Shown one piece after another: positions 259-35,763 of a stretch of DNA of 36,051 nt. Made by a program: the position numbers and the translations under genes. Numbering within the stretch: the stretch's first letter is position 1; the number at the start of each line of letters is the position of its first letter. The DNA is from a virus (taxonomy: Duplodnaviria; Heunggongvirae; Uroviricota; Caudoviricetes), in the IMG/VR virus record IMGVR_UViG_2579778871_000005. One strand, given 5' to 3'. The notes under the pieces are model-generated. The model saw only the letters and a list, made by a program, of their open reading frames with translations. It was not told the DNA's origin and did not search any database.

Positions 259-498
259 TATTTCTCTCCTCATAGATTTATGCCTGTAATGATCACGCTA
301 AAATGTATTCGCTGAAAGTAGGTTTAACCTGTTGCATTAATTGCTAAAAGCTATAACTGTTAAACACAATACAGTGAAAAGTTTTAGACTGAAGGCTCAC
401 TTTGCAGAGGGAAGCTAAAGCCGCGCGCGATAAATCGGCGCTAAAAACGCAATAAATAGCAGGCGGCTTTCATTTCAGTATGTGTAACAGATTTTCTC

Positions 499-1221
499 TT
501 ATTTAGGGTAAGCCTGAACTCGGAACAACTTACTGTTAAGATGCTGACGCGCACGTTTATCCAAAAAGCGGATATAGCGGAACTGTTTATAACGATGTCT
601 CGTTGCTTTATCCAGATTTGCTCGAAGGTACTCTCCGCGTTTGCCACCACGAACTAGCGCCGTTCTACATATCTCATGGTAAAACTCACCATCCAATTCA
701 TAAAACGTAGAGAAATGGCTACCGATGTAGTCAAAATTTGCAGCCTGATACACTACGCCTGAACGGCCACAACGCTCATCCGCAAATGTTTGAACCCATT
801 TAACTTGTGGATAAAGAATGGAGATGAGCTTCAGTGAGTAAGCTAAGACACGACTTTCAGTATTGCGGGGCTGGCTGTCGTGAATCCACATTCGATTGAG
901 TTCCATATACTCCCGGTTGCCGGTCCCGAGTACCACTCGTGCGCCGCTGTTGGGGTTTAATGCATAACCGAACTGTAATACTCCAACCAAATTTCTCCCC
1001 GCAAATACCCCGAGATGCAAGTAACTGTTGTTAACAAACCGCCTGGAATAATGCTTATCTTGAATAATAGACCTGGCCAGCCAGCAACTGATGGTTTCTA
1101 CACGCAGTTCTGTGCAACCATATCCCACGATATCATTCTGATCCTTGATTACGCCGCGAGGGCTTAATACACGAGAAACCTTTTGAGCCATAATAACCTC
1201 TCGTCTGGCGCTCAAAGGCAC
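499..1221 (-). CDS. mom: Mom-like DNA modification protein (start may be the internal Met at 1191)
   Basis: 240-aa ORF containing [13 protein letters not shown], which matches the Mom motif I recall from phage Mu (..IYKAANFRYLG..); sits immediately downstream of, and overlapping, a Com-like zinc-finger ORF as in the Mu com-mom operon. Confidence 0.7.
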
Positions 1222-1333
1222 TCAATTCGTTTACAAACCCGCAGCGCGGGCATTTTATTTGCACCTCAATAACCTGCCCCTTGAATAGCAGTTTTGAGCA
1301 TTGCGTACATCTGACATGCATTTTGTCTGTCAT
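1133..1333 (-). CDS. com: Com-like zinc-finger translational regulator of mom
   Basis: Sub-ORF of 1133..1501 starting at ATG 1333 ([36 protein letters not shown]...), a CxxC...CxxC zinc ribbon resembling Mu Com (..IRCKNCNKLLFKA..IRCPRCK..); its 3' end overlaps the mom start. Confidence 0.55.
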
Positions 1334-1378
1334 TCTGCAAACCTTTTTCAGTATGTGAAAAACTGATAGGCTTACCGG

Positions 1379-1394
1379 ACTGATGGCCATCAGT
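1379..1394. promoter_or_regulatory. Perfect 16-bp palindrome ACTGATGGCCATCAGT upstream of com (candidate regulator binding site)
   Basis: Read directly from the sequence in the 145-bp gap between the stop at 1479 and the com start at 1333; a second inverted repeat CCAGAGTC..GACTCTGG lies at 1439-1466. Confidence 0.3.
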
Positions 1395-1478
1395 GGCAGC
1401 CTTGGGCGGCTCGCAGGCGCATCCTGCGGGTTAGCTGGCCAGAGTCTGGTTGCAGCCTGACTCTGGTCGCTGTTTTCC

Positions 1479-1931
1479 CTATAACGTCTTATTTTGAACA
1501 CTACTGGCTAGCGCGTGGAGTATGTTAGGTGAGTAACGCCAGCTATCGACCAGTCCGAGGAAATCTGCACAAAACTCACTGCAGAAATACTTATCCTCTC
1601 GCCCACGATTGAAAACAACAAACCCCACAGCACCCAACCAGTCGTATTTCAATTGGTCATTTTGCTGGAAGAACTTCTCAACGCGGGCAGGTGATGCCCT
1701 TGTCAGTATCAAATCCCATTTATCGCGCGGCAGCGGCATTTGCTTGCAGCGCACCCCCTTGTCACGCACCGACGACGAATAACAAACAAACTCACCGTTA
1801 CCCAGGTCAACGGCCAGCTCGCAGTGAGAATACTCACCCCGCGTCACCAGTCGCGTCAGCCAGTCGGAAAGCCGTGCAAACCCATGATGATCTTCTCGCC
1901 CTTTATAGAACGCCAGATACACCTGCTTCAT
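1479..1931 (-). CDS. Permuted papain-like (YiiX/YaeF-type, NlpC/P60 superfamily) protein, putative
   Basis: ORF 1479..1940; likely ATG at 1931 overlapping the upstream stop (ATGA). His-containing motif YSHCELAV early and C-terminal Cys motif KYFCSEFC, the order expected for permuted papain-fold enzymes. Assignment by motif only. Confidence 0.45.
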   Translation of the reverse strand: MKQVYLAFYKGREDHHGFARLSDWLTRLVTRGEYSHCELAVDLGNGEFVCYSSSVRDKGVRCKQMPLPRDKWDLILTRASPARVEKFFQQNDQLKYDWLGAVGFVVFNRGREDKYFCSEFCADFLGLVDSWRYSPNILHALASSVQNKTL

Positions 1932-2554
1932 GGTTGCCACCCCGTGGAGTAGTCATACGCCTGAACTGCCTGGATATCTTCCAGCGCCTCAACGGCGGCA
2001 ATATGCCGCTGGGCATTGGCAAAGAGGCGCATATCGTGATCCATTGTAACGGACTCAAACTGCGCCGCGATTTCATTGGTCAGCTCAAGAAGTCCGAGGT
2101 TTTTGGTCTGCCACATTAAGCCTTTGGGGATTTGCTTTGCCTGTCCCATTTTAGTCAGTGACATCTGCTGGATACGGCTACTGGCATCGCTGTGGAAGTG
2201 GTAGTCACCAATCACAATATAATCGGCAGTGACTTCGTCTCGTTGTGCTTTTATCGCTTGTTTAACTTGCGATTTAGCGTTATTAAGCTCGAGGGCAAAT
2301 CTGGCTACGTCATATACCCATACCTTTCCGTCTAACCGGTAAAAATCCCCTGGGGGTAATGTGGTGGTAAACGTTCTGTCTTCAACATTAACCCAGACAT
2401 ATTCCCCTTGATTGAAATGTTCAAGCCATTGTTGCTCAGTTAATTCAATCAGACTTGTTCTCTCTGGATAACAGAATAACTCGGTATCCATCCAATCCAG
2501 AACACGTAAGGATGCAGGATCGTAGTAAGCATATTTTGACATTATCTTCACCAA
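1928..2554 (-). CDS. Tail fiber assembly protein (Tfa)
   Basis: 208-aa ORF immediately downstream of the tail fiber gene with overlapping start/stop; size, position and C-terminal ..YDYSTGW.. are typical of Tfa chaperones. Confidence 0.6.
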   Translation of the reverse strand: MVKIMSKYAYYDPASLRVLDWMDTELFCYPERTSLIELTEQQWLEHFNQGEYVWVNVEDRTFTTTLPPGDFYRLDGKVWVYDVARFALELNNAKSQVKQAIKAQRDEVTADYIVIGDYHFHSDASSRIQQMSLTKMGQAKQIPKGLMWQTKNLGLLELTNEIAAQFESVTMDHDMRLFANAQRHIAAVEALEDIQAVQAYDYSTGWQP

Positions 2555-6386: not shown

Positions 6387-6878
6387 TTAATGAGAGTGAT
6401 GGTTGGTATTGCCGCCTGCGTCGATGATAGTGCCTGACGCATTGATATTGCCGTTAACCTGAATATTGCTATTAATCGTGGTCAGCGGTGCGGTAATAGT
6501 GATACTGGTTTTCACCTCAATCACGATTTTTTCAATGCCGCCATTAACGGTAAGTTGGTGCTGTTTGCGATCATACTCAATCGCGGCCTCATCGGAGAAC
6601 CTCACATAGCGCTTGTCTTTGTCAGTCACCGGCGGCGTATCGACCGACGAATAGACAGCCCCCAGCACCACGCCATCCTCGCCGTTATCATCCAGCAGAA
6701 CCTCCACCTGCTCGCCAATATCCGGGAGCCAGTAGTCCTTATTGTCCTGTGTATTGCGTTGCAGGATGGGGAGCCAGTTGGTACGCAGATCGTCGCATTC
6801 CGGCAGGGTGACGCGCACACACACCTTCACTTCGTCGATATCGCTGATAATACCGGTCTGTCGGGTTACGCCTTTCAT
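6387..6878 (-). CDS. Baseplate spike/assembly protein, P2 gpV-like
   Basis: 163-aa ORF upstream of the W-like gene with a beta-rich, repeat-like C-terminus (..ITITAPLTTINSNIQVNGNINASGTIID..) typical of spike proteins. Confidence 0.6.
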   Translation of the reverse strand: MKGVTRQTGIISDIDEVKVCVRVTLPECDDLRTNWLPILQRNTQDNKDYWLPDIGEQVEVLLDDNGEDGVVLGAVYSSVDTPPVTDKDKRYVRFSDEAAIEYDRKQHQLTVNGGIEKIVIEVKTSITITAPLTTINSNIQVNGNINASGTIIDAGGNTNHHSH

Positions 6879-7993
6879 TGTGTCTCCTGCGTTGTTGTAC
6901 CGTCAGGGTGATAAACGGTCAGGGTGTCGGGCTTTTTATTCTTACGTTTGCCGGAGCCAGAGCTGCTGCCCGCCGCCGTTTTCGGGCCGCGTCCAATCTC
7001 GATCTCCGTACTGTACCCTGATGAACGGTCGAACGAATGGCGGGCGCTGGTGATAAGCCACTCCCCGGAGAGCACTCCGAACCCGTCAAGATTGATTTTG
7101 TTCCCGGCGATAAGCTGCGTGTTACCCATCATGGAGAGCGAACCGGTCTGCTGATACTCGTTATGATCATCCAGCGCCGCCTCGGCTTTCACCTGTGCCG
7201 TCCCCTGATCCGCCGCCCGCGCATTGACCTTGAGCGTATCGGCGCTGGTTGATTTACCGCGTGGGGCGGTACTGCTACTGCCATCGGCGTTATAGGTGAT
7301 CAGTTCCTTATCCTTACTCTTCTGATGCGCCACCTTTGCATCCTTATAGATGCGGTTGATGGTATCGCGCAGCGACCATCGCGCCACATCCTGCGGCGTC
7401 AGCGTCGTCACCGGCGCATTGCTGCGCAGCGTGGCCAGATGGGAAAACACCAGCTCATCAGTGGTGACTTTCAGCGCGTAGCCATACTCACCCGCCAGTC
7501 GCTTCAGAAAGCCGACGTCTGTCTCCGCGTATTGCGTCACCCGATCAATAGTAATTGGCTCTATCTGGCCAACCAGCTTCAGGCCGTGCTTCTGTGCGAT
7601 ACGGCTGGCAATCGCATCCAGCGTCGTTTCTTCGTAGCCCTCGCTGGACGCGGTGCGCAGGGCGCTATTGACCGACGTCGCCACGCCGCGAATGGATACC
7701 GTATCCGGCGGTGCGCCCAGCTCAATCTCATCGATGGAGAACGATCCACAGTCCAGCAACGCTTCGCCCTGATAACCTAACTTCAGCATCAGCATATCGC
7801 CTTTGCCCGGATACCAGGCATCCCGCCAGCGCCCGGCAGTGTCTTCCACCTGCACGTCGATTTCATCCGACTCGCTCTTGAGACTGTCGGTATACGTCAC
7901 GCTCAGGACAAAAGGCGCAATATCGTGGGTGATATCTTTCTGCCCGTAAAACAGGGTGAAAACGGGGGTGATAACGGCATTTACCTGAGCCAC
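6875..7993 (-). CDS. Tail protein, P2 gpD-like (baseplate hub / late control D family)
   Basis: 372-aa ORF following the X-like and U-like genes after the tape measure, the P2 T-U-D order. Confidence 0.65.
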   Translation of the reverse strand: MAQVNAVITPVFTLFYGQKDITHDIAPFVLSVTYTDSLKSESDEIDVQVEDTAGRWRDAWYPGKGDMLMLKLGYQGEALLDCGSFSIDEIELGAPPDTVSIRGVATSVNSALRTASSEGYEETTLDAIASRIAQKHGLKLVGQIEPITIDRVTQYAETDVGFLKRLAGEYGYALKVTTDELVFSHLATLRSNAPVTTLTPQDVARWSLRDTINRIYKDAKVAHQKSKDKELITYNADGSSSTAPRGKSTSADTLKVNARAADQGTAQVKAEAALDDHNEYQQTGSLSMMGNTQLIAGNKINLDGFGVLSGEWLITSARHSFDRSSGYSTEIEIGRGPKTAAGSSSGSGKRKNKKPDTLTVYHPDGTTTQETQ

Positions 7994-8199: not shown

Positions 8200-9182
8200 T
8201 ACACGCTCCTTGTAATGATTGCTGCCGCCAGCCTGCTAACGGCAGGGGAGCACTCTTCCATCAGCGACTGGCCGTTGCGCACAACGTCCAGTGCCTGCGA
8301 AAAAACAGTGGTGAAATTGTCCAGACTGATATCCTCAAACCCGGTCAGGGTGCCGCTGATTTCGTCATAAATCTGCGAGGCGTATTGCCCGACGTCGCCA
8401 AGAACATCTGCAAGTACGCTGCCGTCTGTGATGTCCGTCAGCGTTTGCAGCACATCGTCCAGGGGGGACAATACATCGTCGAGAATATCTTCCAGCGGAG
8501 AGACCACCTCGTCCAGCATCTCCTCCAGCGGTCCCAGTACATCATCAACAAGATCCCCGACTTGTTCCATTGCTTCTCCAATGGCGTCCTCGACCTGTCC
8601 CGCCATATCTTCTGCCCACGACACCGCCTCATCGAACGCCTGCGCAGCGGCATCCAGCGCATCCGATACCTCACCCAGCCCGTCAGTAATATCGCCCAGG
8701 TCTTCGAACATATCGCTGCCAGAAAAACTGTCATCAGCATCGTCAGACCATGAGTCAATATTCGGATCATCCCCGGACACCGCAGGTGGCGTCAGGGGAT
8801 TTTTCGGATCGCCGATGTACTCCTTCAGCGACAGCTCCGCACTTAACGCCTGCACATTGCCGAGGCCATCGGTCTGCTGGCTGGTTGCCCGGATATCGGT
8901 GATCACAAACCAGCCGCGATAGTCACCGTTGCCGAACACCAGCGCCAGCGCCTGATGTGCCACCATCGCGTCACGCAGCCGCGCCAGTTCAACATCCGGC
9001 TGGCAATAGTGTTCGTGGAACACCAGGCTGATACTCACTTCATCCAGCTTTTCGCCGATAAACTGCAACCCCGGCTTACCTTCGATACGTGAGTGCTCGG
9101 CATAATCCATGCCAAACGACGCATCAAAACCGTCCCAGTAGGTCACCACCTCAAACTCAATATCACCCAGTACGGCAAACAT
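8199..9182 (-). CDS. Tail protein, P2 gpU-like N-terminal domain with acidic repeat-rich C-terminus
   Basis: 327-aa ORF immediately downstream of the tape measure gene; C-terminal half made of degenerate acidic repeats (DxxxDVLSPLEDxLDxV). Confidence 0.5.
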   Translation of the reverse strand: MFAVLGDIEFEVVTYWDGFDASFGMDYAEHSRIEGKPGLQFIGEKLDEVSISLVFHEHYCQPDVELARLRDAMVAHQALALVFGNGDYRGWFVITDIRATSQQTDGLGNVQALSAELSLKEYIGDPKNPLTPPAVSGDDPNIDSWSDDADDSFSGSDMFEDLGDITDGLGEVSDALDAAAQAFDEAVSWAEDMAGQVEDAIGEAMEQVGDLVDDVLGPLEEMLDEVVSPLEDILDDVLSPLDDVLQTLTDITDGSVLADVLGDVGQYASQIYDEISGTLTGFEDISLDNFTTVFSQALDVVRNGQSLMEECSPAVSRLAAAIITRSV

Positions 9183-11944
9183 TACGCATACTCCCGGCGT
9201 TCACGACGCGCCATAATCCGCTCCATCATCTTCTCCAGTTCGTGCAGGCTCAGTTTCAGCGCAGAAGTGATTTCGCCTTCGGTAGCCGATGCCGCGCCCT
9301 TGATAGTAATTTGCGGCGCAAAGGTCACATTCACCCCGGATGACTGCCCCGGTACATGCACACTGGCATTGCGCCCTTTGGCGGCAGGAGCATTACTTTT
9401 TGGTAGTTCAGGAACGGCAGGCGCGGCGGCTTTCGGTGGCACTGGCGGAAGCGGTTTGGGGCGGGATAACACTGCGCCCGCTGCTCCGGCCAGCGCCATA
9501 CCCGCCGCAGAGGGCGCAGGCGGTGCGGCTTTCGACAGCAGTGGATTGAACTGGGGAGCGATGACGCCCGTCACTGGCGCAATCTTTGGTATCGGAGCAA
9601 CATCCAGCCCCGGTACGCTGATATCCGGCAGTGGAGGAATTAACGCCGCCGCCATTTGCTGACTGGCGGAAATCGCATCCGGGGCGGTGCGGTTGATACC
9701 AATAGCGGCCCCTTGCGCGATATTATCGCCGAACCCGGCAAAGACCTGGCTGGGGGAGTGAATACCCAGCGTCTCTTTAAACCAGCCGGAAATGGAGTTA
9801 CCAAAATTGACGACCGTCTCTTTCGCGGCGGTCAGCGCATTGCCGATACCGTTCACCAGACCGTTAATCAGATTGCCGCCAAAATCGGTAAAGTTCTTCG
9901 GCATATCGATACCGAAGTATTTCATCACCCCGGCAAAGGCTTTACAGAACAACCCCAGCGGCGACCAGTTCATAATTAATCTGCCGACGCCCGCGATACC
10001 GCCAGAAAACGCGGTCTTAATCTGTGCCCAGATACCGGAGAACCAGCCTGTCACGCCGCTCCAGATACCTTTGATGCCGCTCCATGCCCCGCGAAACGCT
10101 ACCGTGACCTGCGCCCACAGCCGTTTAAAGAAAGCGGATATTGGCCCCCAGTAGCGATAAATCAGATACGCGGCCACGGCGATGCCGGTGATGATTAACC
10201 CGATGGGATTCATCAGCAGCGCACGGCCAAGAAACAATACCGCCCGTCCGGCCATCATCAGACCACGCAGCAGCCCACTGCCCAGAATTTTTGCCAGCTT
10301 TAAAGCGCTACGTCCCAGTGAAGTTAGCATCCGCGTTACCACATGGAATCTGCCCCCTGTCGAAAATGCGACTTTAAGGAACAACCAGCGGGTCCTTAGT
10401 AGTTCAACGGCTTTGATACAGTCAGCAAAGGGAGAAAGCATTAAGTTCAGCGCCAGTTTGCAGCCCACCGTTGCCGCTTTAAAGGCAATAAATCCAGCGA
10501 GTAGTTTGGCAACCGTCGCGACCATCTCCGGGTTTGCCGCGAGCCATTTACTGAACGAATCCAATACGGGTAACAGACTTTCCGATAATTCAACCAGTGC
10601 CGGGCGAAGCGAACTACCTATGCTGATTGCAATTTCATTCATCGCAACTTGAGATTTTCGCCACCGGGCTTCCAGCGTGTTATTTTGTTTACCAAAGTCG
10701 GTATCCAACGCATTTTGCGATCCAGGATCACTCATCTGGGCCTTATTAGACTGATATTTATCCCAGTTCTGCCGCATCGAAAGTAGATGATTGACGGTCT
10801 GAATATCGGTAAACACCTCTGACAGACCGAACGACTCCATCAATTTTTGCTGTGCTTCGCCGTCACCGCTTGCGCCAGCTTCCTGCCACTGCTTAATAAA
10901 TGCATCACCTTTTCCCTTAATAAAGCGATCCGCAATCATCAAGGAAGCTTCATATTGTGAATAACCTTTGGCGACGTAATCCTGCATTGACGCCTCATAG
11001 TCTACGCCCGCTTTTTCATATTTCTTAACGGTGTCACCGCGCGTCATTGCAGCCATCCAGTTAGTCATATTGGTCACAGCTTCTTCTGCTGAACCTGAAC
11101 CTTTTGCTGCCTCAAGAGATGCAACGATCTCCTTAATTGCCTCCGGCCCGGTAATGCCTTTGGCGGCAAAGCTTTTCGCCAGGGTGGGGAGAGCTTTAGC
11201 CATATCCTTTAATTCAAAGGAACCGGTCTTTGCACCGACGGCTGCCATTGCAAAGGCTTCTTCCATCTCCTTACCATCACCAATCTTCAGCGCATCGCTG
11301 AATGCATATGTCATCTTCGCCAGATCGGTCATATCGGCTTTGGTGGCGGTGGCCGTTTTACCGAGTAATTCCACCATGCCAGCTGCTTTTTCAGGATTCA
11401 TACCGTCTGCAACCAGTTGATTCACACCGCCGAGCAGTGTTTCCTGCAGTTGGTTTACCTGGCCCGCGGCCTGACGGATGGCATTACCAATAGCCACTTC
11501 CTGTTTATCATTAAGGTTGCCTGTGACGGCGATATCCCGTAAGCCGGACTCAAATCCTGCGTAGGTCTTAACAGACGATACGAACGGAGCCGACATTGTT
11601 CTTGCAAGGGCATAGGTTTCTGCCCCCTGGGCATACAGATTCATCCGCTGATTGCGTAAGGCCTGACTACGCGCGGCAGATGCTGACAATCTTGCCTGTT
11701 GATTCTGTAACTGCTGGAGAGTGCGTGAAACACGCTGTAAATCAGCGTTCAACCTGTTCGCTACGCTCCCCCCCAAATGACCGTAACGGGCAAGAGCGTC
11801 GTTCAGGGCGTTCTGTTGAGTGCGTAACCGCTGTGTTGATCTGCCTAAATCGGTTAACGCGCTGCGCGTTCCCCCCATTGCAGAACGAAACGCCCCGCTA
11901 ATTGCACCACCAATCAGAACACTAATTGAAAGATCTGCGGCCAC
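9182..11944 (-). CDS. Tail tape measure protein
   Basis: 920-aa ORF, Ala/Gly-rich with coiled-coil-like N-terminus and internal hydrophobic segments, between the tail tube/chaperone and baseplate genes. Confidence 0.85.
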   Translation of the reverse strand: MAADLSISVLIGGAISGAFRSAMGGTRSALTDLGRSTQRLRTQQNALNDALARYGHLGGSVANRLNADLQRVSRTLQQLQNQQARLSASAARSQALRNQRMNLYAQGAETYALARTMSAPFVSSVKTYAGFESGLRDIAVTGNLNDKQEVAIGNAIRQAAGQVNQLQETLLGGVNQLVADGMNPEKAAGMVELLGKTATATKADMTDLAKMTYAFSDALKIGDGKEMEEAFAMAAVGAKTGSFELKDMAKALPTLAKSFAAKGITGPEAIKEIVASLEAAKGSGSAEEAVTNMTNWMAAMTRGDTVKKYEKAGVDYEASMQDYVAKGYSQYEASLMIADRFIKGKGDAFIKQWQEAGASGDGEAQQKLMESFGLSEVFTDIQTVNHLLSMRQNWDKYQSNKAQMSDPGSQNALDTDFGKQNNTLEARWRKSQVAMNEIAISIGSSLRPALVELSESLLPVLDSFSKWLAANPEMVATVAKLLAGFIAFKAATVGCKLALNLMLSPFADCIKAVELLRTRWLFLKVAFSTGGRFHVVTRMLTSLGRSALKLAKILGSGLLRGLMMAGRAVLFLGRALLMNPIGLIITGIAVAAYLIYRYWGPISAFFKRLWAQVTVAFRGAWSGIKGIWSGVTGWFSGIWAQIKTAFSGGIAGVGRLIMNWSPLGLFCKAFAGVMKYFGIDMPKNFTDFGGNLINGLVNGIGNALTAAKETVVNFGNSISGWFKETLGIHSPSQVFAGFGDNIAQGAAIGINRTAPDAISASQQMAAALIPPLPDISVPGLDVAPIPKIAPVTGVIAPQFNPLLSKAAPPAPSAAGMALAGAAGAVLSRPKPLPPVPPKAAAPAVPELPKSNAPAAKGRNASVHVPGQSSGVNVTFAPQITIKGAASATEGEITSALKLSLHELEKMMERIMARRERREYA

Positions 11945-12335: not shown

Positions 12336-12653
12336 CTAAACCACCGCGCCAGCAGTGCCATCGCCTGCCACAGTTGCTGCGGATTCGCCGCCCAGCCCAA
12401 GCATGTCCTGAAATCGTTTCTGCAGTGCCTGATAATCAGCCAGATCCATTTCAGCCAGGTCTTCCGGCACCAGCCCGGTCATTGCCGCTAACAGCGGCTC
12501 GTCCCAGTCTTCCGGCTTATCGCTGATACGCCGCGCCGCGCGCATATCTTTCACCTTCAGGCGAGTGAGTTGCAGCTCGTCGATGCGCTGCCCGGAGGGC
12601 GCGGTGAAAGGGTATTGCAGTTTGAAAGTGTTTTTCATGGTGACTGTCCTCAT
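12336..12653 (-). CDS. Tail assembly chaperone (P2 gpE-like), putative; start uncertain
   Basis: 105-aa ORF directly downstream of the tail tube gene, the usual chaperone position; no frameshift-extension ORF detected by eye. Confidence 0.45.
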   Translation of the reverse strand: MRTVTMKNTFKLQYPFTAPSGQRIDELQLTRLKVKDMRAARRISDKPEDWDEPLLAAMTGLVPEDLAEMDLADYQALQKRFQDMLGLGGESAATVAGDGTAGAVV

Positions 12654-12717
12654 CGAATGATGAGGACAGTATTGAGGAGGGAATAAACAAACAGTATTAA
12701 ACGGCTTTAATGAGCGG

Positions 12718-18160: not shown

Positions 18161-18338
18161 ATTCCCTCCGTAGTACGTCAGGGAATAGCTTTATAAAAAC
18201 GGGCGAAAATCGCTTTTAAAGCGCTTTAATCACTGCGGGGAAGTAGAGGATAAAAAGCGGGGCGTAAAGGGCTTTATAAATCTTTATAAAGCGGGTCAGG
18301 CGATCAGACCGGGCATTCGCCCGGCCTGGAGAAACATC
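18161..18338 (-). promoter_or_regulatory. Candidate late promoter/activator-binding region upstream of the protease-capsid operon
   Basis: Only sizeable gap in the head cluster; five copies of a GCTTTWWAA-type motif (CTTTATAAA at 18189-18197, 18272-18280, 18282-18290; related copies near 18212-18230) plus palindrome TTAAAGCGCTTTAA; GGAGGG ribosome-binding site before the ATG at 18160 on the minus strand. Confidence 0.4.
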
Positions 18339-26404: not shown

Positions 26405-27432
26405 TCCTCAACCTCATCCAGTATCTCTTCCCTGAAGCTATCAGGAATATTCCTTAGAATGATTACATCCTGATCACGATTATACTCAATTGAACCATCT
26501 ACAAGACCGACACGATCAAACTTTAGTTCCCAATAATTAGACTTTCCTTTAAAGGAAATGATTCCTTTTAGTACGCGTCCATCAGGGACAAAACCATCCG
26601 ACAGTTCCAGTTCTTGGTTGGCTAGTTTAGTCGAGAGTAGTTCTGGTTCTTGTGGCCAGACCGCATTCACAAAGGTTGTCAGATCTACAGGCTCACCATC
26701 TTTGCTCAGTTGCTTCAAATGGTCATGTGCAGTTTGCAGAAAAGCCTCTCGATGTGCGGGGTCAAGCCCTTGCTCAGTCGCAAATTCTTTCAACGCATCC
26801 CGCAATTTCTCCGTTTCACGCTTGGCGATCAAAACATCGTTACAGCCCAGGAATTGCTTAAAGTAACCAGATACAGCATTACTCCCCTTCAGGAAACTTA
26901 TATAACGTTCGGCACCTGATTGCCAGGACGTAATGTCAATACGCCCCGCCACACGTAGCTTGTCGATATCAAGGTAGACACTTTCTTGGATAGCAAAGGC
27001 ATCGTTAACCGCAGTACCCGTCGTGGGACTTAACATGGCAACTAAAATATGCTCGTGTTGATTCATCGTAATGTGGGCGAATAGAACATAGCCACCAGTA
27101 GCGAGTGGTGTTGTTTGAATTCGAGATTCCAAATGACGAATCATACGGCAGGAGCTACGGTAAAAATTATCAGGATGCTCCTGAGCTAAATAGTCTGATA
27201 CAATTGTTTGCATCGGGTAATTATCTGGGTCATCTTCAAAATGGCCATAGCCTTTCCCCATTCGCCCTGCATATTTCCCACAGATATCATCGATTAAGCG
27301 TTGTGATGCTGCGGTGACACCGCTCTCTGTTGGACTTAGCTGTAAGGATGTCACCCCATGCGGTTCTTTATCTAAAAGATGAACAACCACATGATTTACA
27401 ACGATTGCATTTGCAGGTTCATTTGCTGGCAT
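26401..27432 (-). CDS. NdpA/YejK-like nucleoid-associated protein homolog (diverged)
   Basis: ORF 26401..27483 (first codon GTG); likely ATG at 27432. Segment GGYVLFAHITMNQHEHILVAMLSP...RIDITSWQSGAERYISFLKGSNAVSGYFKQFLG aligns with E. coli YejK as I recall it ([24 protein letters not shown]...[37 protein letters not shown]). Confidence 0.65.
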   Translation of the reverse strand: MPANEPANAIVVNHVVVHLLDKEPHGVTSLQLSPTESGVTAASQRLIDDICGKYAGRMGKGYGHFEDDPDNYPMQTIVSDYLAQEHPDNFYRSSCRMIRHLESRIQTTPLATGGYVLFAHITMNQHEHILVAMLSPTTGTAVNDAFAIQESVYLDIDKLRVAGRIDITSWQSGAERYISFLKGSNAVSGYFKQFLGCNDVLIAKRETEKLRDALKEFATEQGLDPAHREAFLQTAHDHLKQLSKDGEPVDLTTFVNAVWPQEPELLSTKLANQELELSDGFVPDGRVLKGIISFKGKSNYWELKFDRVGLVDGSIEYNRDQDVIILRNIPDSFREEILDEVEE

Positions 27433-28143: not shown

Positions 28144-28494
28144 CTATCCGGCTTGTTTATCGGGTCGGGCCTGCGTGAGCAATCGGCCCATTTCAAGAAT
28201 CGCCCTCCGTTGTTCGGCGCTCATATCGTCAAAGGCCTCTAACAACCTTTGTTTTTCTGGTGAAAAATTTTCTACCTTTTCTGCAACCATTGATGGATTA
28301 CGTTGCCCAGTAACTACATAGAGAACATCTAATCCAACCTTTGCCCAAGCCTCTAAAACCGCACTATTAGGGAACGAAGCGCCTTTTTCCCAATTGATTT
28401 GGGAGTGCTTACCTGCGCTAGCCAAAGCAGCGAAATCAGTCTGGTTGTAACCCAACCGTTCACGTTCCTTTTTAATGCGTTCACCTTGGTTCAT
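28144..28494 (-). CDS. Prophage repressor, XRE-family helix-turn-helix protein
   Basis: 116-aa ORF with N-terminal HTH-like segment (..IKKERERLGYNQTDFAALASAGKHSQINWEKG..); divergent from the early operon across a repeat-containing intergenic region; no peptidase domain. Confidence 0.7.
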   Translation of the reverse strand: MNQGERIKKERERLGYNQTDFAALASAGKHSQINWEKGASFPNSAVLEAWAKVGLDVLYVVTGQRNPSMVAEKVENFSPEKQRLLEAFDDMSAEQRRAILEMGRLLTQARPDKQAG

Positions 28495-28775: not shown

Positions 28776-28836
28776 ATTTTACAGTAAGTGTAACAGCGTT
28801 TCACATACAGAAAAGAGGCAACACAGGATAATCGTT

Positions 28837-29379: not shown

Positions 29380-30330
29380 ATGGCACGTCAAAAATCACAA
29401 CCCGCCGAACTGGTGCCGGATGCGCCGCTGGACGCCGAACTGAACGTCGGACTGAATGCGCTGGCGGAACACCGCATTGAGATTATGCAACAGTTCGGTG
29501 ACGGCCTGCCGTATGAGCGTGACCGCGTGGTGCATGAGGCACGGTTTTATATGTCGCAGAGCGCCGAGGCAATGCTGGAAGCGGGTAAGCGGCTGGTGAT
29601 ACTGAAAGAGAATGAACCGCATGGGGAGTTCACGGCAATTGTCACTGAACAGTTGGGGCTAGGTGACCGGGCTGCACGCCGTATGATGCAGGCGTCTATT
29701 AAGTACCTTTCACCTACGCTTGAGTCAAAACGGCCAACGTTGGCCGTTTTGGGTAAGGCTAAATTATTTGAACTGGTATCAGAGGATGACGAAGACCTTA
29801 CAGCATTAGCCGAAGGCGGCACCGTCGCTGGCCTGACACTGGACGACGTAGATCGCATGAGCTGCCGCGAACTCCGCGCCGCTCTGCGTGAAGCCCGCGA
29901 GGACGCCGACGCCCAGCGCCGCGTTCTGTCCGATAAGAATGACAAAATTGACAAACTCTCCACCCTGCTCGCCAAAAAGTCCCGAATCGCGCCGCCGCCC
30001 CCGGATGTAGAGGACGAGCAGTTGCGTAAGGAAGTCATGGCTATCGCCTTCGAAGCTGAAGCCATTATTCGCGGCAAGCTCTATGAGGCCTTCACCGTAT
30101 TGAATCAGCATCATTCGGAACTGGTTCAGACGCATCCCTACGCCTTTATGACGGGCCTGCTGTGTCAGATTGACAGCGCCACCACCTATCTGCGCGAAGA
30201 GTTTGGCCTTGCTGCTGAACCACGCAGTGACGCCGCGCCGGAGTGGGTAACAGACCCCACGCCAGAGATTGATCGCCCGGAATGGATGAATGCTTCAGAT
30301 TCAGAACCTGTTCAGGCGGATTGTATATGA
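29380..30330 (+). CDS. DUF3102-like early protein
   Basis: 316-aa ORF directly upstream of the transposase; motif ..GKRLVILKENEPHGEFTAIVTEQLGLGDRAARRMMQAS.. matches the pattern I associate with DUF3102 proteins of Mu-like phages. Confidence 0.55.
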   Translation: MARQKSQPAELVPDAPLDAELNVGLNALAEHRIEIMQQFGDGLPYERDRVVHEARFYMSQSAEAMLEAGKRLVILKENEPHGEFTAIVTEQLGLGDRAARRMMQASIKYLSPTLESKRPTLAVLGKAKLFELVSEDDEDLTALAEGGTVAGLTLDDVDRMSCRELRAALREAREDADAQRRVLSDKNDKIDKLSTLLAKKSRIAPPPPDVEDEQLRKEVMAIAFEAEAIIRGKLYEAFTVLNQHHSELVQTHPYAFMTGLLCQIDSATTYLREEFGLAAEPRSDAAPEWVTDPTPEIDRPEWMNASDSEPVQADCI

Positions 30331-32081: not shown

Positions 32082-33206
32082 ATGCAGATTAAACAACAGT
32101 TGCGCCAGCGTGGCATCACTCAGGCAGCAGTAGCACAGGCTACCGGGGTTTCCGCAGCGGTTATCGCGCAGATGGTTAATCACGGCCTGTGGCCGAAAAC
32201 AGAAGAACTACGGGAGCGCATCAGCGCATTTTTGGCAGAAAAAGGTATTGAACTGAAAGTGGGACAGGCAGCGGCCACTGCCTGCCCCGATACCGCATCC
32301 ACAAGGGACGAAAATATGTTACTGGCAAAACAGGTATTAAATCCAGCGGCGAAGAAACATTTTGGGCTGTTCCGCGACCCGTTCGCTGATGAAGTCATGC
32401 AGAGCGCGGACGATGTATTCACCACGCCGGATATCCGTTATGTGCGCGAGGCGCTGTACCAGACTGCGCGTCACGGCGGGTTTATTGCGGTGACAGGTGA
32501 ATCCGGCGCAGGGAAAACCACGCTGCGCCGTGACCTGGCTGACCGCATCAACCGCGAAAACGCGCCCGTTATCATCATCGAGCCGTATATCATCGCGATG
32601 GAAGACAACGACGCAAAGGGTAAAACCCTGAAAGCTGCCGCCATAGCAGAAGCCATCATCAACACCATCGCGCCGCTGGAGAACGTCAAACGCTCGCAGG
32701 AGGCGCGTTATCGCCAGTTGCACCGGGTGCTAAAGGAATCGGCCCGTGCCGGGTTCTCACATTGCCTTGTTATCGAAGAGGCGCACTCGCTGCCGGTGCC
32801 GACGCTCAAGCACCTGAAACGCTTCTTTGAGCTGGAAGATGGCTTTAAGAAACTGCTGTCGATAGTGCTGATTGGTCAGCCTGAACTGAAGCTGAAACTG
32901 TCCGAACGTAATCAGGAAGTGCGTGAAGTGGTTCAACGTTGCGAGGTTGTCGAACTGCTGCCGCTGGACAACTATCTGGAATCGTTTCTGGCGTTTAAAT
33001 TTCAGCGTGCCGGAAAAGGAGTTTCAGAGGTGCTGGATGATAGCGCCGCCGATGCTATCCGCGCCCGGCTGTGCAATTCATCCCGACGCGGTGACGTCAG
33101 TCTGCTGTACCCGCTGGCGCTGGGGAATCTGGTTATCGCTGCAATGAATCTGGCTGCTGATATCGGCGTACCCGTAGTGAATGCCGATGTGATTAAAGGA
33201 GTGTGA
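32082..33206 (+). CDS. Transposition ATPase (Mu B-like AAA+ protein) with N-terminal HTH
   Basis: 374-aa ORF; Walker A ..VTGESGAGKTTL.. and Walker B-like ..HCLVIEEAHSL..; N-terminal HTH-like segment (..LRQRGITQAAVAQATGVSAAVIAQMVN..). Confidence 0.8.
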   Translation: MQIKQQLRQRGITQAAVAQATGVSAAVIAQMVNHGLWPKTEELRERISAFLAEKGIELKVGQAAATACPDTASTRDENMLLAKQVLNPAAKKHFGLFRDPFADEVMQSADDVFTTPDIRYVREALYQTARHGGFIAVTGESGAGKTTLRRDLADRINRENAPVIIIEPYIIAMEDNDAKGKTLKAAAIAEAIINTIAPLENVKRSQEARYRQLHRVLKESARAGFSHCLVIEEAHSLPVPTLKHLKRFFELEDGFKKLLSIVLIGQPELKLKLSERNQEVREVVQRCEVVELLPLDNYLESFLAFKFQRAGKGVSEVLDDSAADAIRARLCNSSRRGDVSLLYPLALGNLVIAAMNLAADIGVPVVNADVIKGV

Positions 33207-34828: not shown

Positions 34829-35233
34829 ATGAACAGAGCACAATTATTGCGGGTTATCCATGTTGCCCGGCGAGAGCTGCGACTGGATGAGGCTACGTAT
34901 CGACAATTACTCAAAACACACTGCGGCGGGGAATCATTACGGGTAATGAGCGACTCACAACTGGCTAAGGCTTTCGCTGTGATGAAAAAACAGGGCTTCA
35001 AAGTCACATCTAAAGAGCCTCCTTCCTATGATAAGCAGTCTGCGATGATCCGCGCATTATGGAAGGAACTGGCGTCCAGCGGTACGGTTAGAGATGGCAG
35101 TTTGTCAGCGTTAAATAAGTTCGTACAGCGCCAGACAGGTGTCGCCCGGCTTGAGTGGCTGAATAATCAACAGGCTAGCCAGGTGATTGAACAACTGAAA
35201 AAATGGCTGGCGCGTGTCGGGAGGAGAAGATGA
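34829..35233 (+). CDS. GemA-like protein (Mu gp16 family)
   Basis: 134-aa ORF; ..LLRVIHVARRELRLDEATYRQLLK..., the pattern I recall for GemA-family proteins, located immediately upstream of mor as in Mu; GGAGG before the ATG. Confidence 0.55.
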   Translation: MNRAQLLRVIHVARRELRLDEATYRQLLKTHCGGESLRVMSDSQLAKAFAVMKKQGFKVTSKEPPSYDKQSAMIRALWKELASSGTVRDGSLSALNKFVQRQTGVARLEWLNNQQASQVIEQLKKWLARVGRRR

Positions 35234-35610
35234 AAGAACCGCAACAGCCAGAAATCTTTGCTGACCTTGCGCACCATGTCGCGAGCACGTTGCAAGAAAT
35301 GGTTGGAATGGAAGATGATATAGCTGAACAAATTGCTGTAGCTGTTGCTAACCGCATGATGCAAGCATGGGGCGGGCAAACCATCTACCTGCCCAAAGGC
35401 ATGGTCTTCATGACATCGGCGCGGGACTACAAAATCTGGCAGGAGTGTGATGGACGCAACTACCGCGAACTGGCGAAGAAGTACAACCTGACTTTGCAGT
35501 GGATCTACAAAGTAGTGAAAAAGATCCAGCGTTCTGAAAGCGCCCGCCGACAACTCCCATTATTCTCTATCACTGATGAACCTGAAGCAGTAAAATCAAC
35601 CCTGAAGTGA
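35230..35610 (+). CDS. mor: Mor-like transcriptional activator (Mor/C family)
   Basis: ORF 35203..35610; ATG at 35230 overlaps the gemA-like stop (ATGA), preceded by GAGGAG; C-terminal ..RDYKIWQECDGRNYRELAKKYNLTLQWIYKVVKK.. matches the Mor/C-family HTH region. Confidence 0.65.
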   Translation: MKEPQQPEIFADLAHHVASTLQEMVGMEDDIAEQIAVAVANRMMQAWGGQTIYLPKGMVFMTSARDYKIWQECDGRNYRELAKKYNLTLQWIYKVVKKIQRSESARRQLPLFSITDEPEAVKSTLK

Positions 35611-35614
35611 TTAA

Positions 35615-35649
35615 TGAAACGAGGTCGTAATGATGTTGGCCTCGTTTCA
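35615..35649. repeat. Inverted repeat (10-bp arms TGAAACGAGG / CCTCGTTTCA, 15-bp spacer) at the prophage right end
   Basis: Read directly from the sequence; starts 5 nt after the mor stop; the right arm ends in CA at 35649 and overlaps the 9-bp word TTTCAGTAT also present at 473-481. Confidence 0.5.
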
Positions 35650-35763
35650 GTATCTGAAAAGCAATTACAGAAACCGTCCCGTTAAAACTCACCTCACCCC
35701 ATCTAATCCCATAATTATCGTGCAGATGATGGTGGGTTTATCTCACTTCTGATTAGGAAGCGT

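Follow-up and report, generated by a model that had tools for sequence, protein, structure and literature searches.

How a DNA-modification operon known from phage Mu is carried and controlled in a phage of another kind is the question raised by the DNA analysed here, a stretch of 36,051 nucleotides (IMG/VR record IMGVR_UViG_2579778871_000005, Caudoviricetes), which is referred to in its whole length as the window. An earlier note, made from the sequence alone, had proposed that a Com-like zinc-finger gene overlaps the start of a mom homolog at the prophage end and that the pair reproduces the operon of Mu, in which Com unlocks the translation of Mom and Mom modifies adenines. In our reading, to which we give a probability of about 0.8, positions 499-1333 of the minus strand hold a working com-mom operon, which forms the last cargo of a BcepMu-type prophage, is gated by Com, does without the Dam/OxyR control of Mu and is probably activated by a Mor/C-family protein. 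The gene pair as such is already explained and annotated: in the two E. coli genomes that carry the module, the NCBI pipeline labels one product 'Mom family adenine methylcarbamoylation protein' and the other a 'Com family' protein, and the identity of the genes is unchanged by the analysis. Modestly new are the BcepMu-type carrier, a control cassette with swapped cargo and an overlapping-helix form of the Com switch; no paper on com-mom in BcepMu-type phages was found in open-access text. Mining of viral metagenomes, IMG/VR included, has yielded more than 8000 Mom homologs (PMC13219725), and the contig of the window is itself an IMG/VR entry.

The com and mom genes

Both proteins align significantly with their Mu counterparts, as the earlier note had expected. 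Mom matches the Pfam family Mom (PF25680; E 7.2e-71) along the whole profile (positions 1-202 of 202) as well as PHROG 1384 (E 4.7e-69); it is identical to Mu Mom in 164 of 228 residues (72%; E 1e-129) and matches the solved structure of Mu Mom (PDB 8BV8) with an E value of 1e-112. The motif quoted for it is present in the open reading frame (ORF) 499..1221, and GAGAGG precedes the ATG at 1191; a search of NCBIfam with Mom and with the product of the preceding gene, ORF153, matched no model. The copy in a Salmonella contig (L079) has a synonymous divergence (dS) of 0.19 and a ratio of nonsynonymous to synonymous divergence (dN/dS) of 0.10-0.13, which indicates that mom is under purifying selection with a dN/dS of about 0.1.

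Mu Mom moves glycine from Gly-tRNA(Gly) onto the N6 of adenine in double-stranded DNA, and the glycyl group afterwards rearranges to yield N6-carbamoylmethyl-adenine (PMC13219725, 2026). The residues important in Mu Mom are W48, H58, Y59, R111, S124, D149, R151, Y159 and W181, together with a helix-turn-helix (HTH)-like insertion (PMC13219725). All of these nine activity-linked residues but the last are kept in the Mom of the window, and so is the HTH-like insertion (175-209), with 57% identity to that of Mu Mom; the replacement of W181 by phenylalanine, which is still aromatic, counts against an unchanged activity. By analogy, the Mom of the window would act as Mu Mom does and transfer glycine from Gly-tRNA(Gly) to the N6 of adenines in double-stranded phage DNA, whereupon rearrangement of the glycyl group would give N6-carbamoylmethyl-adenine and block many restriction enzymes. 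A tRNA gene scan of the window found none, so that the donor tRNA would be that of the host. Mom is one of few adenine-hypermodifying DNA enzymes, and its chemistry was solved only in 2026.

Com matches the Pfam family Zn_ribbon_Com (PF10122; E 1.7e-11, ORF residues 62-96) and PHROGs 6417 and 13819, both of which are named for Com. It is identical to Mu Com in 18 of 47 residues (38%; E 4e-10), with the four cysteines and the sequence KLLFK all kept; the zinc ribbon has the form CxxC-N(16-17)-CxxC, and the length is 62-66 amino acids versus 62 in Mu. Com is thus confined to the last 62-66 amino acids of the mechanical ORF 1133..1501, which had been taken in its full 122 amino acids as the Com-like gene in the earlier note. 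Two start codons are candidates. The ATG at 1333 has a Shine-Dalgarno (SD) sequence, AAGG, 8 nt upstream (1345-1342) and coincides with the end of a leader shared with prophages that carry a Dam-type methyltransferase as cargo (described below), and the ATG at 1321 gives the length of Mu Com and the distance of 29 nt between -10 element and ATG found in Mu. In the NCBI annotation (PGAP, NZ_CP028740.1), com starts at 1390 (85 amino acids), inside a palindrome, with an N-terminal extension seen in no other Com; this start is probably too far upstream, and the true one is probably 1333 or 1321.

The com gene overlaps mom by 59 nt (1191 to 1133), compared with 50 nt in Mu by coordinate arithmetic. 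With the formal alignment of both proteins, this overlap and the Com target hairpin described below, the operon arrangement of Mu is reproduced as had been claimed: Mu, D108 and SfMu (Muvirus) have the same two proteins, a com gene overlapping the mom start and this gene pair as the last one at the phage terminus. They differ from the window in that mom starts with AUG in the window and with GUG in Mu, and in that the carrier phage of the window belongs to a genus-level group other than that of Mu. When loci of Mu type are aligned at the DNA level, only the part of mom beyond the com stop aligns. A homology search with Com yielded a single close relative, the Salmonella copy L079, which has about 95% DNA identity and, being too similar, gives no covariation signal; com and mom are intact in both E. 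coli and Salmonella.

Two side observations concern Com. The NCBI label for the protein is 'DNA-binding transcriptional regulator', although the Com family comprises RNA-binding translational activators, and the only match of Com to a solved structure is the zinc ribbon of AccD, a subunit of acetyl-CoA carboxylase (PDB 9m70; E 0.002). The AccD zinc ribbon has been reported to bind its own mRNA.

Table 1. Features of the com-mom region; positions refer to the window unless a contig is named.
Feature	Position	Strand	Description
mom	499..1191	-	230 amino acids; ATG 1191, stop 501-499; mechanical ORF 499..1221; GNAT-fold, Gly-tRNA-dependent adenine N6 modifier (family level)
com	1133..1333 (66 amino acids, ATG 1333) or 1133..1321 (62 amino acids, ATG 1321)	-	Com zinc ribbon; stop 1135-1133
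Com operator UGAGUGCCUUUGAGCGCCAG	1224-1205	-	within the 3' part of com; hairpin GUGC[CUUUGA]GCGC at 1221-1208
Long-range inhibitory helix (predicted)	1179..1219	-	arm 1219-1210 GCCUUUGAGC with arm 1188-1179 GCUCAAAAGG; minimum-energy fold
Conserved leader/control cassette	1334..1478	-	145 nt between ORF153 and com; strongly structured
15-bp motif TTTCAGTATGTGAAA	1346..1360	n/a	copy in the com leader
Perfect 16-bp palindrome ACTGATGGCCATCAGT	1379..1394	n/a	candidate site for the phage Mor/C-family activator
GC-rich hairpin	1439..1466	-	just after the ORF153 stop; no U tract
ORF153	1479-1940	-	conserved 153-amino-acid protein; Cys/His motifs YSHCE, KYFCSEF
Cargo-side prophage terminus	416-498	n/a	junction versus empty grxA-ybjC site; two ATTTATYGCG-type end repeats (427-435, 448-456, + strand); one copy of the 15-bp motif
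Sister prophages with D12 methyltransferase cargo	L089:3656-5037; L083:6362-7743; also L080, L091		DUF4376 gene, ORF153 and 145-nt leader kept

The Com operator and the mom start region

The site bound by Com has been defined by in-vitro selection (SELEX) as NGAGNNCC(N)2-3GAGNNCCNN, in which CC(N)2-3GAG lies within a hexaloop (PMC6483171). The operator UGAGUGCCUUUGAGCGCCAG fits this motif exactly and is its sole match in the 36-kb window. To compare it with others, com-mom loci were gathered out of genome and viral collections, giving 25 distinct operator sequences; the regular expression used for collecting fixed the inner GCC…GAGC only and left the covarying positions free. Across these 25 loci, the four stem positions pair in 99% of cells, and the two outer pairs covary (AU/GC/GU and UA/GC/CG/UG/GU). 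The pairing score is not reached in any of 500 shuffles, and slid registers stay far below it. A scan of the region against Rfam returned no family. The position is kept as well: in both Mu and the window, a CC(N)3GAG hexaloop hairpin lies 5' of the mom start, and the start codon follows at a distance of 33 nt when counted from the beginning of the 24-nt operator window. The hairpin 1221-1208 is accordingly the putative binding site of Com.

Folding of the RNA around the mom start, as suggested in the earlier note, predicts both this operator hairpin and an alternative helix that encloses the start. In the minimum-energy fold, the arm GCCUUUGAGC, which consists of the 5' half and the loop of the Com hairpin, pairs over 10 bp with the arm GCUCAAAAGG, which corresponds to mom codons 2-5, and the helix encloses the SD sequence GAGAGG (1202-1197) and the AUG (1191-1189) of mom in a 21-nt loop. 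This closed helix is predicted to be 4.9 kcal/mol more stable than the operator-hairpin conformer. Since the 3' arm lies in different registers across lineages, a single alignment for the long-range helix was dropped, and the pairing between operator and start was evaluated at 15 loci by comparing duplex energies of own and other combinations. The operator half of the window pairs with its own start region at -14.1 kcal/mol versus a mean of -7.5 kcal/mol, which is rank 1 of 15 in both directions, and the mean energy of own pairs beats 20000 of 20000 permutations (0 as good), a figure that is inflated by related loci. Loci of the Mu and D108 type show no preference for their own pair, which fits their adjacent-hairpin design: in Mu, the GUG start lies in a hairpin of its own (CCCACGG…UUGUGGG) next to the Com hairpin, whereas the helix of the window shares bases with the Com hairpin.

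The either/or geometry is also found in L017 and in Desulfovibrio-type loci. In these and other non-enterobacterial loci (L069, L067, L011, L017), whose Mom proteins are about 50% identical to that of the window, the Com hairpin and the start-site helix likewise share bases and a GATC cluster is absent; they differ from the window in having a 3' arm that covers the start codon and a strong inner anti-SD hairpin, whereas in the window the 3' arm lies just past the AUG and the SD sequence is largely unpaired. The variable triplet of the loop has its complement at or next to the start codon, with UUU/AAA in the window and ACA/UGU, AUA/UAU and CCC/GGG elsewhere. Both helix arms are unchanged in the Salmonella copy, and 3 of the 21 enclosed loop bases differ.

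Taken together, the predicted folds suggest that the known Com mechanism operates here in a variant geometry, as a Com-operated either/or switch. Because Mom is toxic, translation of mom would be gated, with the start region closed by the 10-bp helix between 1219-1210 and 1188-1179. Com, translated first from the same mRNA, would bind the CC(N)3GAG hexaloop of the hairpin 1221-1208, and because this hairpin uses bases of the 5' arm of the closing helix, binding would free the ribosome site of mom. Two points weigh against such a switch. In the closed form, the SD sequence and the AUG are predicted to be unpaired and codons 2-5 alone are paired, so that inhibition is less obvious than in Mu, whose GUG lies in a stem. 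Moreover, the z-scores of the switch region are modest (-2.35 for 111 nt, -1.07 for 71 nt). The work on Mu left unresolved by which step Com opens the mom start (PMC6483171); the overlapping helices offer a directly testable answer and, if it is true, a clearer model than Mu.

The closest Mom outside the lineage, which is 80% identical, occurs in the viral contig IMGVR_UViG_3300036772_000566 (L017:5314-6696), where the gene order is com, a phage-lysozyme-like ORF (PF00959) and mom. This locus has two Com-type operator hairpins, one before the start of the lysozyme-like ORF and one before mom, the second with a perfect anti-helix (GCGCCCCC/GGGGGCGC), and Com may control two genes there.

The leader, its cargo and the candidate promoter

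In Mu, a GATC/OxyR region precedes com. The window lacks it: as the earlier note had seen by eye, the upstream gap is free of GATC, with none between 1144 and 1888. Such a gap of 745 bp is by itself unremarkable (about 9% by chance at the density of the window), but it is exceptional among enterobacterial com loci, since every examined locus of Mu type has two to three GATC sites in the interval from -76 to -120 before com and, after them, a dyad like TTAT-N6-ATAA; the window, like the non-enterobacterial loci, has no GATC cluster before com. From this it follows that Dam/OxyR control in the style of Mu would not apply, as had been supposed.

What lies before com instead is the leader. It differs at about four positions from that of the Salmonella copy L079, in which mom has a dS of 0.19, and is by this comparison conserved well below the synonymous rate. 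It contains the perfect palindrome ACTGATGGCCATCAGT, found where the earlier note had placed it. Perfect 16-bp palindromes occur three times in the window versus about 0.55 expected, and this one is invariant in all four distinct copies of the cassette, although the sister contigs were retrieved by the palindrome itself, which makes its invariance there one by construction and leaves L079, retrieved through Com, as the independent copy. When the search was repeated with another conserved 20-mer, the five contigs recovered were the same, which adds nothing on the conservation of the palindrome.

The exact search with the palindrome among viral contigs yielded four more prophage contigs, which carry the same tail-fibre assembly gene, ORF153 and leader. 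In these four, the leader precedes a D12 N6-adenine methyltransferase instead of com-mom, and the two kinds of sequence part exactly at the ATG that follows the leader. Homologs of ORF153 that are further off stand in other contexts without the cassette, with the exception of L101, in which a weakly similar leader precedes another D12 methyltransferase. A related exchange is known from the Mu-like prophages FluMu and Pnme1, in which a DNA adenine methyltransferase occupies the position of mom (PMC3299994). These resemble the present case in having a terminal slot with alternative anti-restriction DNA-modification genes and differ from it in that they are Mu-like phages of Haemophilus and Neisseria, whereas here the swap occurs within one enterobacterial BcepMu-type lineage and the control cassette is kept. 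With the same control region before a Dam-type methyltransferase in sister prophages, the terminal slot amounts to a natural swap experiment for anti-restriction cargo. It is tempting to speculate that the leader, with its 16-bp palindrome, T-run, weak -10 element and the 15-bp motif TTTCAGTATGTGAAA, is a portable, cargo-independent cassette with which enterobacterial phages of BcepMu type time the modification gene in their terminal slot, be it com-mom or a Dam-type methyltransferase, in place of Dam/OxyR, combined with a Com switch made of two mutually exclusive helices; this wider proposal is tentative, and we put it somewhat below even odds.

Whether the palindrome is a control site, as the earlier note had considered, is not proven, but the idea gains support from the conservation of the leader and from a spacing like that of Mu. 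The centre of the palindrome lies 31.5 nt upstream of a -10-like element, CATACT (1355-1350), with a T5 run (1362-1358) between them; in Mu, the centre of the C dyad lies 31.5 nt upstream of the -10 element of Pmom, TAAGAT, with a T6 spacer run (PMC4461284). With the ATG at 1321, the distance from -10 to ATG is 29 nt in both. The sequence of the dyad is unrelated to the C site of Mu, TTAT-N6-ATAA. The phage has a single gene of the Mor/C family, at 35203-35610 (PF08765; E 5e-39). Transcription, lacking the Dam/OxyR switch of Mu, would most likely start from a weak promoter without a -35 element (-10 CATACT), activated late by this single Mor/C-family protein at the palindrome, its candidate site.

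Several findings weigh against this promoter. CATACT was chosen after the fact among several weak candidates, and part of the spacing match with Mu may be chance. A transcript starting about 7 nt past CATACT would have a leader of a mere 10 nt before the ATG at 1333. A consensus scan favours another promoter pair, TTCACA/CAGAAT, which is not conserved in the copies with Dam cargo. The palindrome sequence recurs in the upstream region of no other late gene, and in L017, the nearest com relative outside the lineage, com follows the upstream gene after about 24 nt, which leaves no room for a promoter. The idea of a late-promoter site shared with other genes was rejected: no other copy of the palindrome exists within three mismatches, and the other intergenic palindromes are unrelated. 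An octamer, CYATCAGT, was rejected too (seven copies versus 1.5 expected, yet the extra ones lie inside genes). Words shared between intergenic regions provided no link between the palindrome and late promoters; this search did reveal the 15-bp motif TTTCAGTATGTGAAA.

The same observations can be read at the level of RNA. In this alternative, com-mom has no promoter of its own and is transcribed by read-through from the tail-fibre genes and ORF153, and the spacer acts as RNA, in a row of hairpins that stabilise or insulate the message and hide the ribosome site of com; the palindrome would be one of these RNA hairpins instead of a DNA site for a protein. The close succession of com and the upstream gene in L017 fits this, as does the hairpin after ORF153 without a U tract. 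Furthermore, the leader RNA folds far better than shuffled sequences (z -3.75; 0 of 200 as good), its last predicted hairpin pairs GCCU with the SD sequence of com, and the differences among the four copies lie mostly in predicted loops, with one stem change from G-C to G-U that keeps pairing in RNA alone. However, the four sequences contain no compensatory double changes, the minimum-energy fold does not use the palindrome as a hairpin of its own, and a perfect palindrome of 16 bp would more typically be the site of a dimeric DNA-binding protein; besides, dyad, T-run and -10 spacing match Pmom of Mu exactly. We regard read-through as unlikely, though as a serious competitor, and it is not exclusive of the preferred reading.

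Less probable still is that the palindrome and the 15-bp motif are operators for the phage repressor, encoded at 28144-28494, or for a Ner-like protein, which would silence the toxic cargo in the lysogen. The motif, a quasi-palindrome, occurs five times in the window (473-487, 1346-1360, 28779-28793, 28799-28813 and 35645-35659) versus 0.65 expected, and none of 100 shuffles reaches five. They are placed close to the two phage ends, in the com leader and, as an inverted pair, just after a ner-like gene, and the motif is not the end repeat of the transposase; the two copies flanking com-mom are also present in the Salmonella contig. That the leader copy overlaps the proposed -10 and start region of com and is conserved in all copies of the cassette would suit an operator. 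No protein is linked to the motif, however; the copy at the right end overlaps a terminator arm and may be incidental, and the prophages with Dam cargo lack a copy downstream of the cargo. Activation through the palindrome stays the preferred account of the leader.

Two further elements of the leader region deserve mention. The GC-rich hairpin 1439-1466 has one stem mismatch, which is repaired in three sister copies, and possibly marks the end of the tail-fibre transcript or stabilises the RNA. ORF153 matches no Pfam family, and its label from PHROG 1128, 'enoyl-CoA hydratase-like', is doubtful; it precedes modification cargo in this lineage and tail-sheath genes in more distant phages. Other long perfect palindromes of the window lie at 29727-29750, 26543-26558, 12645-12668 and 18271-18292; the 24-bp AAAACGGCCAACGTTGGCCGTTTT falls within an early gene, another has the sequence TTTCCTTTAAAGGAAA, and two belong to late intergenic spacers.

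The carrier prophage and related loci

The operon is carried by an intact BcepMu-type transposable prophage of 35.3 kb (416-35755), which is inserted between grxA and ybjC of E. coli. Bases 1-415 of the window correspond to grxA and the spacer downstream of it, the left junction falls at 415/416 when an empty grxA-ybjC site is compared, and on the right the prophage ends with the final base of ...CTGATTA at 35755, with a target duplication of 6 bp (GGAAGC). The mom stop lies 83 bp from the terminus at 416, so mom is the terminal gene and the module indeed sits at the prophage end. The cargo-side terminus ...CGCGCGGCTTTA (also written ...ATTTATCGCGCGCGGCTTTA) reads the same at four independent insertions and is similar to the right ends of BcepMu and Mu. 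At the right junction, 20 bp that resemble host sequence proved to be the BcepMu-like phage terminus. The termini (416-440, 35730-35755) have the form 5'-TAA…TTA-3', those of Mu and BcepMu the form TG…CA.

One arm of the prophage encodes an rve transposase, an ExeA-family protein in the position of Mu B, a DUF3164 protein, a gp16-family (GemA-like) protein and Mor, and the other encodes lysis genes, a DUF935 portal, F/G-like morphogenesis proteins and a P2-like tail; the early region is inverted relative to Mu. The claim that the other modules differ from those of Mu is hence right for the transposase, the P2-like tail and the inverted early region but not for Mor, the GemA-like and ExeA-family proteins, the DUF935 portal and the F/G-like proteins. 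With its Tn552/rve-type transposase and ExeA-family partner, inverted early arm ending in Mor, Mu-like head, P2-like tail and short target duplication, the element is of BcepMu type and, in a broad sense, still a Mu-like transposable phage. The same backbone and layout are found in BcepMu and phiE255 (Burkholderia), KP12 (Klebsiella), and PhiKM and Phi06_2974 B (Escherichia), namely an early operon at one end, with Mor as its last gene, and lysis, head and P2-like tail genes toward the other. These phages have similar terminal repeats and share 69-76% identity in the transposase (69% with BcepMu, 75-76% with KP12 and with PhiKM/Phi06_2974 B) and 60-73% in the portal (60% with BcepMu); the transposase has no match in Mu. 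In the annotated records examined, the cargo after the tail fibres is another one: BcepMu has an acyltransferase there, KP12 an invertase with its invertible segment. None of these phages is among the 40 Mom matches listed. In this copy, the whole com-mom unit, including its RNA operator, has moved as a cassette into an unrelated transposable-phage backbone, without the Dam/OxyR control.

The element is rare. The module with these flanks is present in two of 5426 complete E. coli genomes, a search of the E. coli genomes with the leader returned the same two only, and none of 50,697 phage records was matched by the region in megablast.

Two doubts remain as to the function of the operon in this carrier. 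Mom could be active with a donor or DNA sites unlike those of Mu Mom, for instance another aminoacyl-tRNA, as 28% of the residues differ from Mu Mom, W181F included, and the N-terminal 20 residues, which are implicated in tRNA binding, are divergent; yet the essential and near-essential residues and the insertion are kept, and 72% identity is high for a change of substrate, which makes this very improbable. Marginally weaker still is the case for a silent or decaying remnant in a defective prophage, which besides the rarity of the element draws on the copy in strain A35 (L001) with frameshifts or a stop in gpD, the tape measure gene and the ExeA-family gene (window 6875-7993, 9182-11944 and 32082-33206), a finding that also tells against a working operon, but these three ORFs and the other structural and transposition ORFs are intact in the window, com and mom are intact in both hosts, mom retains its low dN/dS, and the regulatory RNA elements are unchanged between the E. 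coli and Salmonella copies.

At other loci, mom occurs without com. In four viral contigs of about 33 kb (L053, L043, L059 and L061), mom directly follows a tail-fibre assembly gene, with neither com nor operator, so Mom is not always controlled by Com. A further mom without com, 73% identical, directly follows a Gin-like invertase in a metagenome-assembled genome (MAG) of Enterobacteriaceae, Hs463_bin3 (L003:3331-4699). It adjoins an ORF like phosphoadenosine phosphosulfate (PAPS) reductase, similar to DndC, and a large ORF similar to DndB, and may be a Mu remnant within a DNA-modification island.

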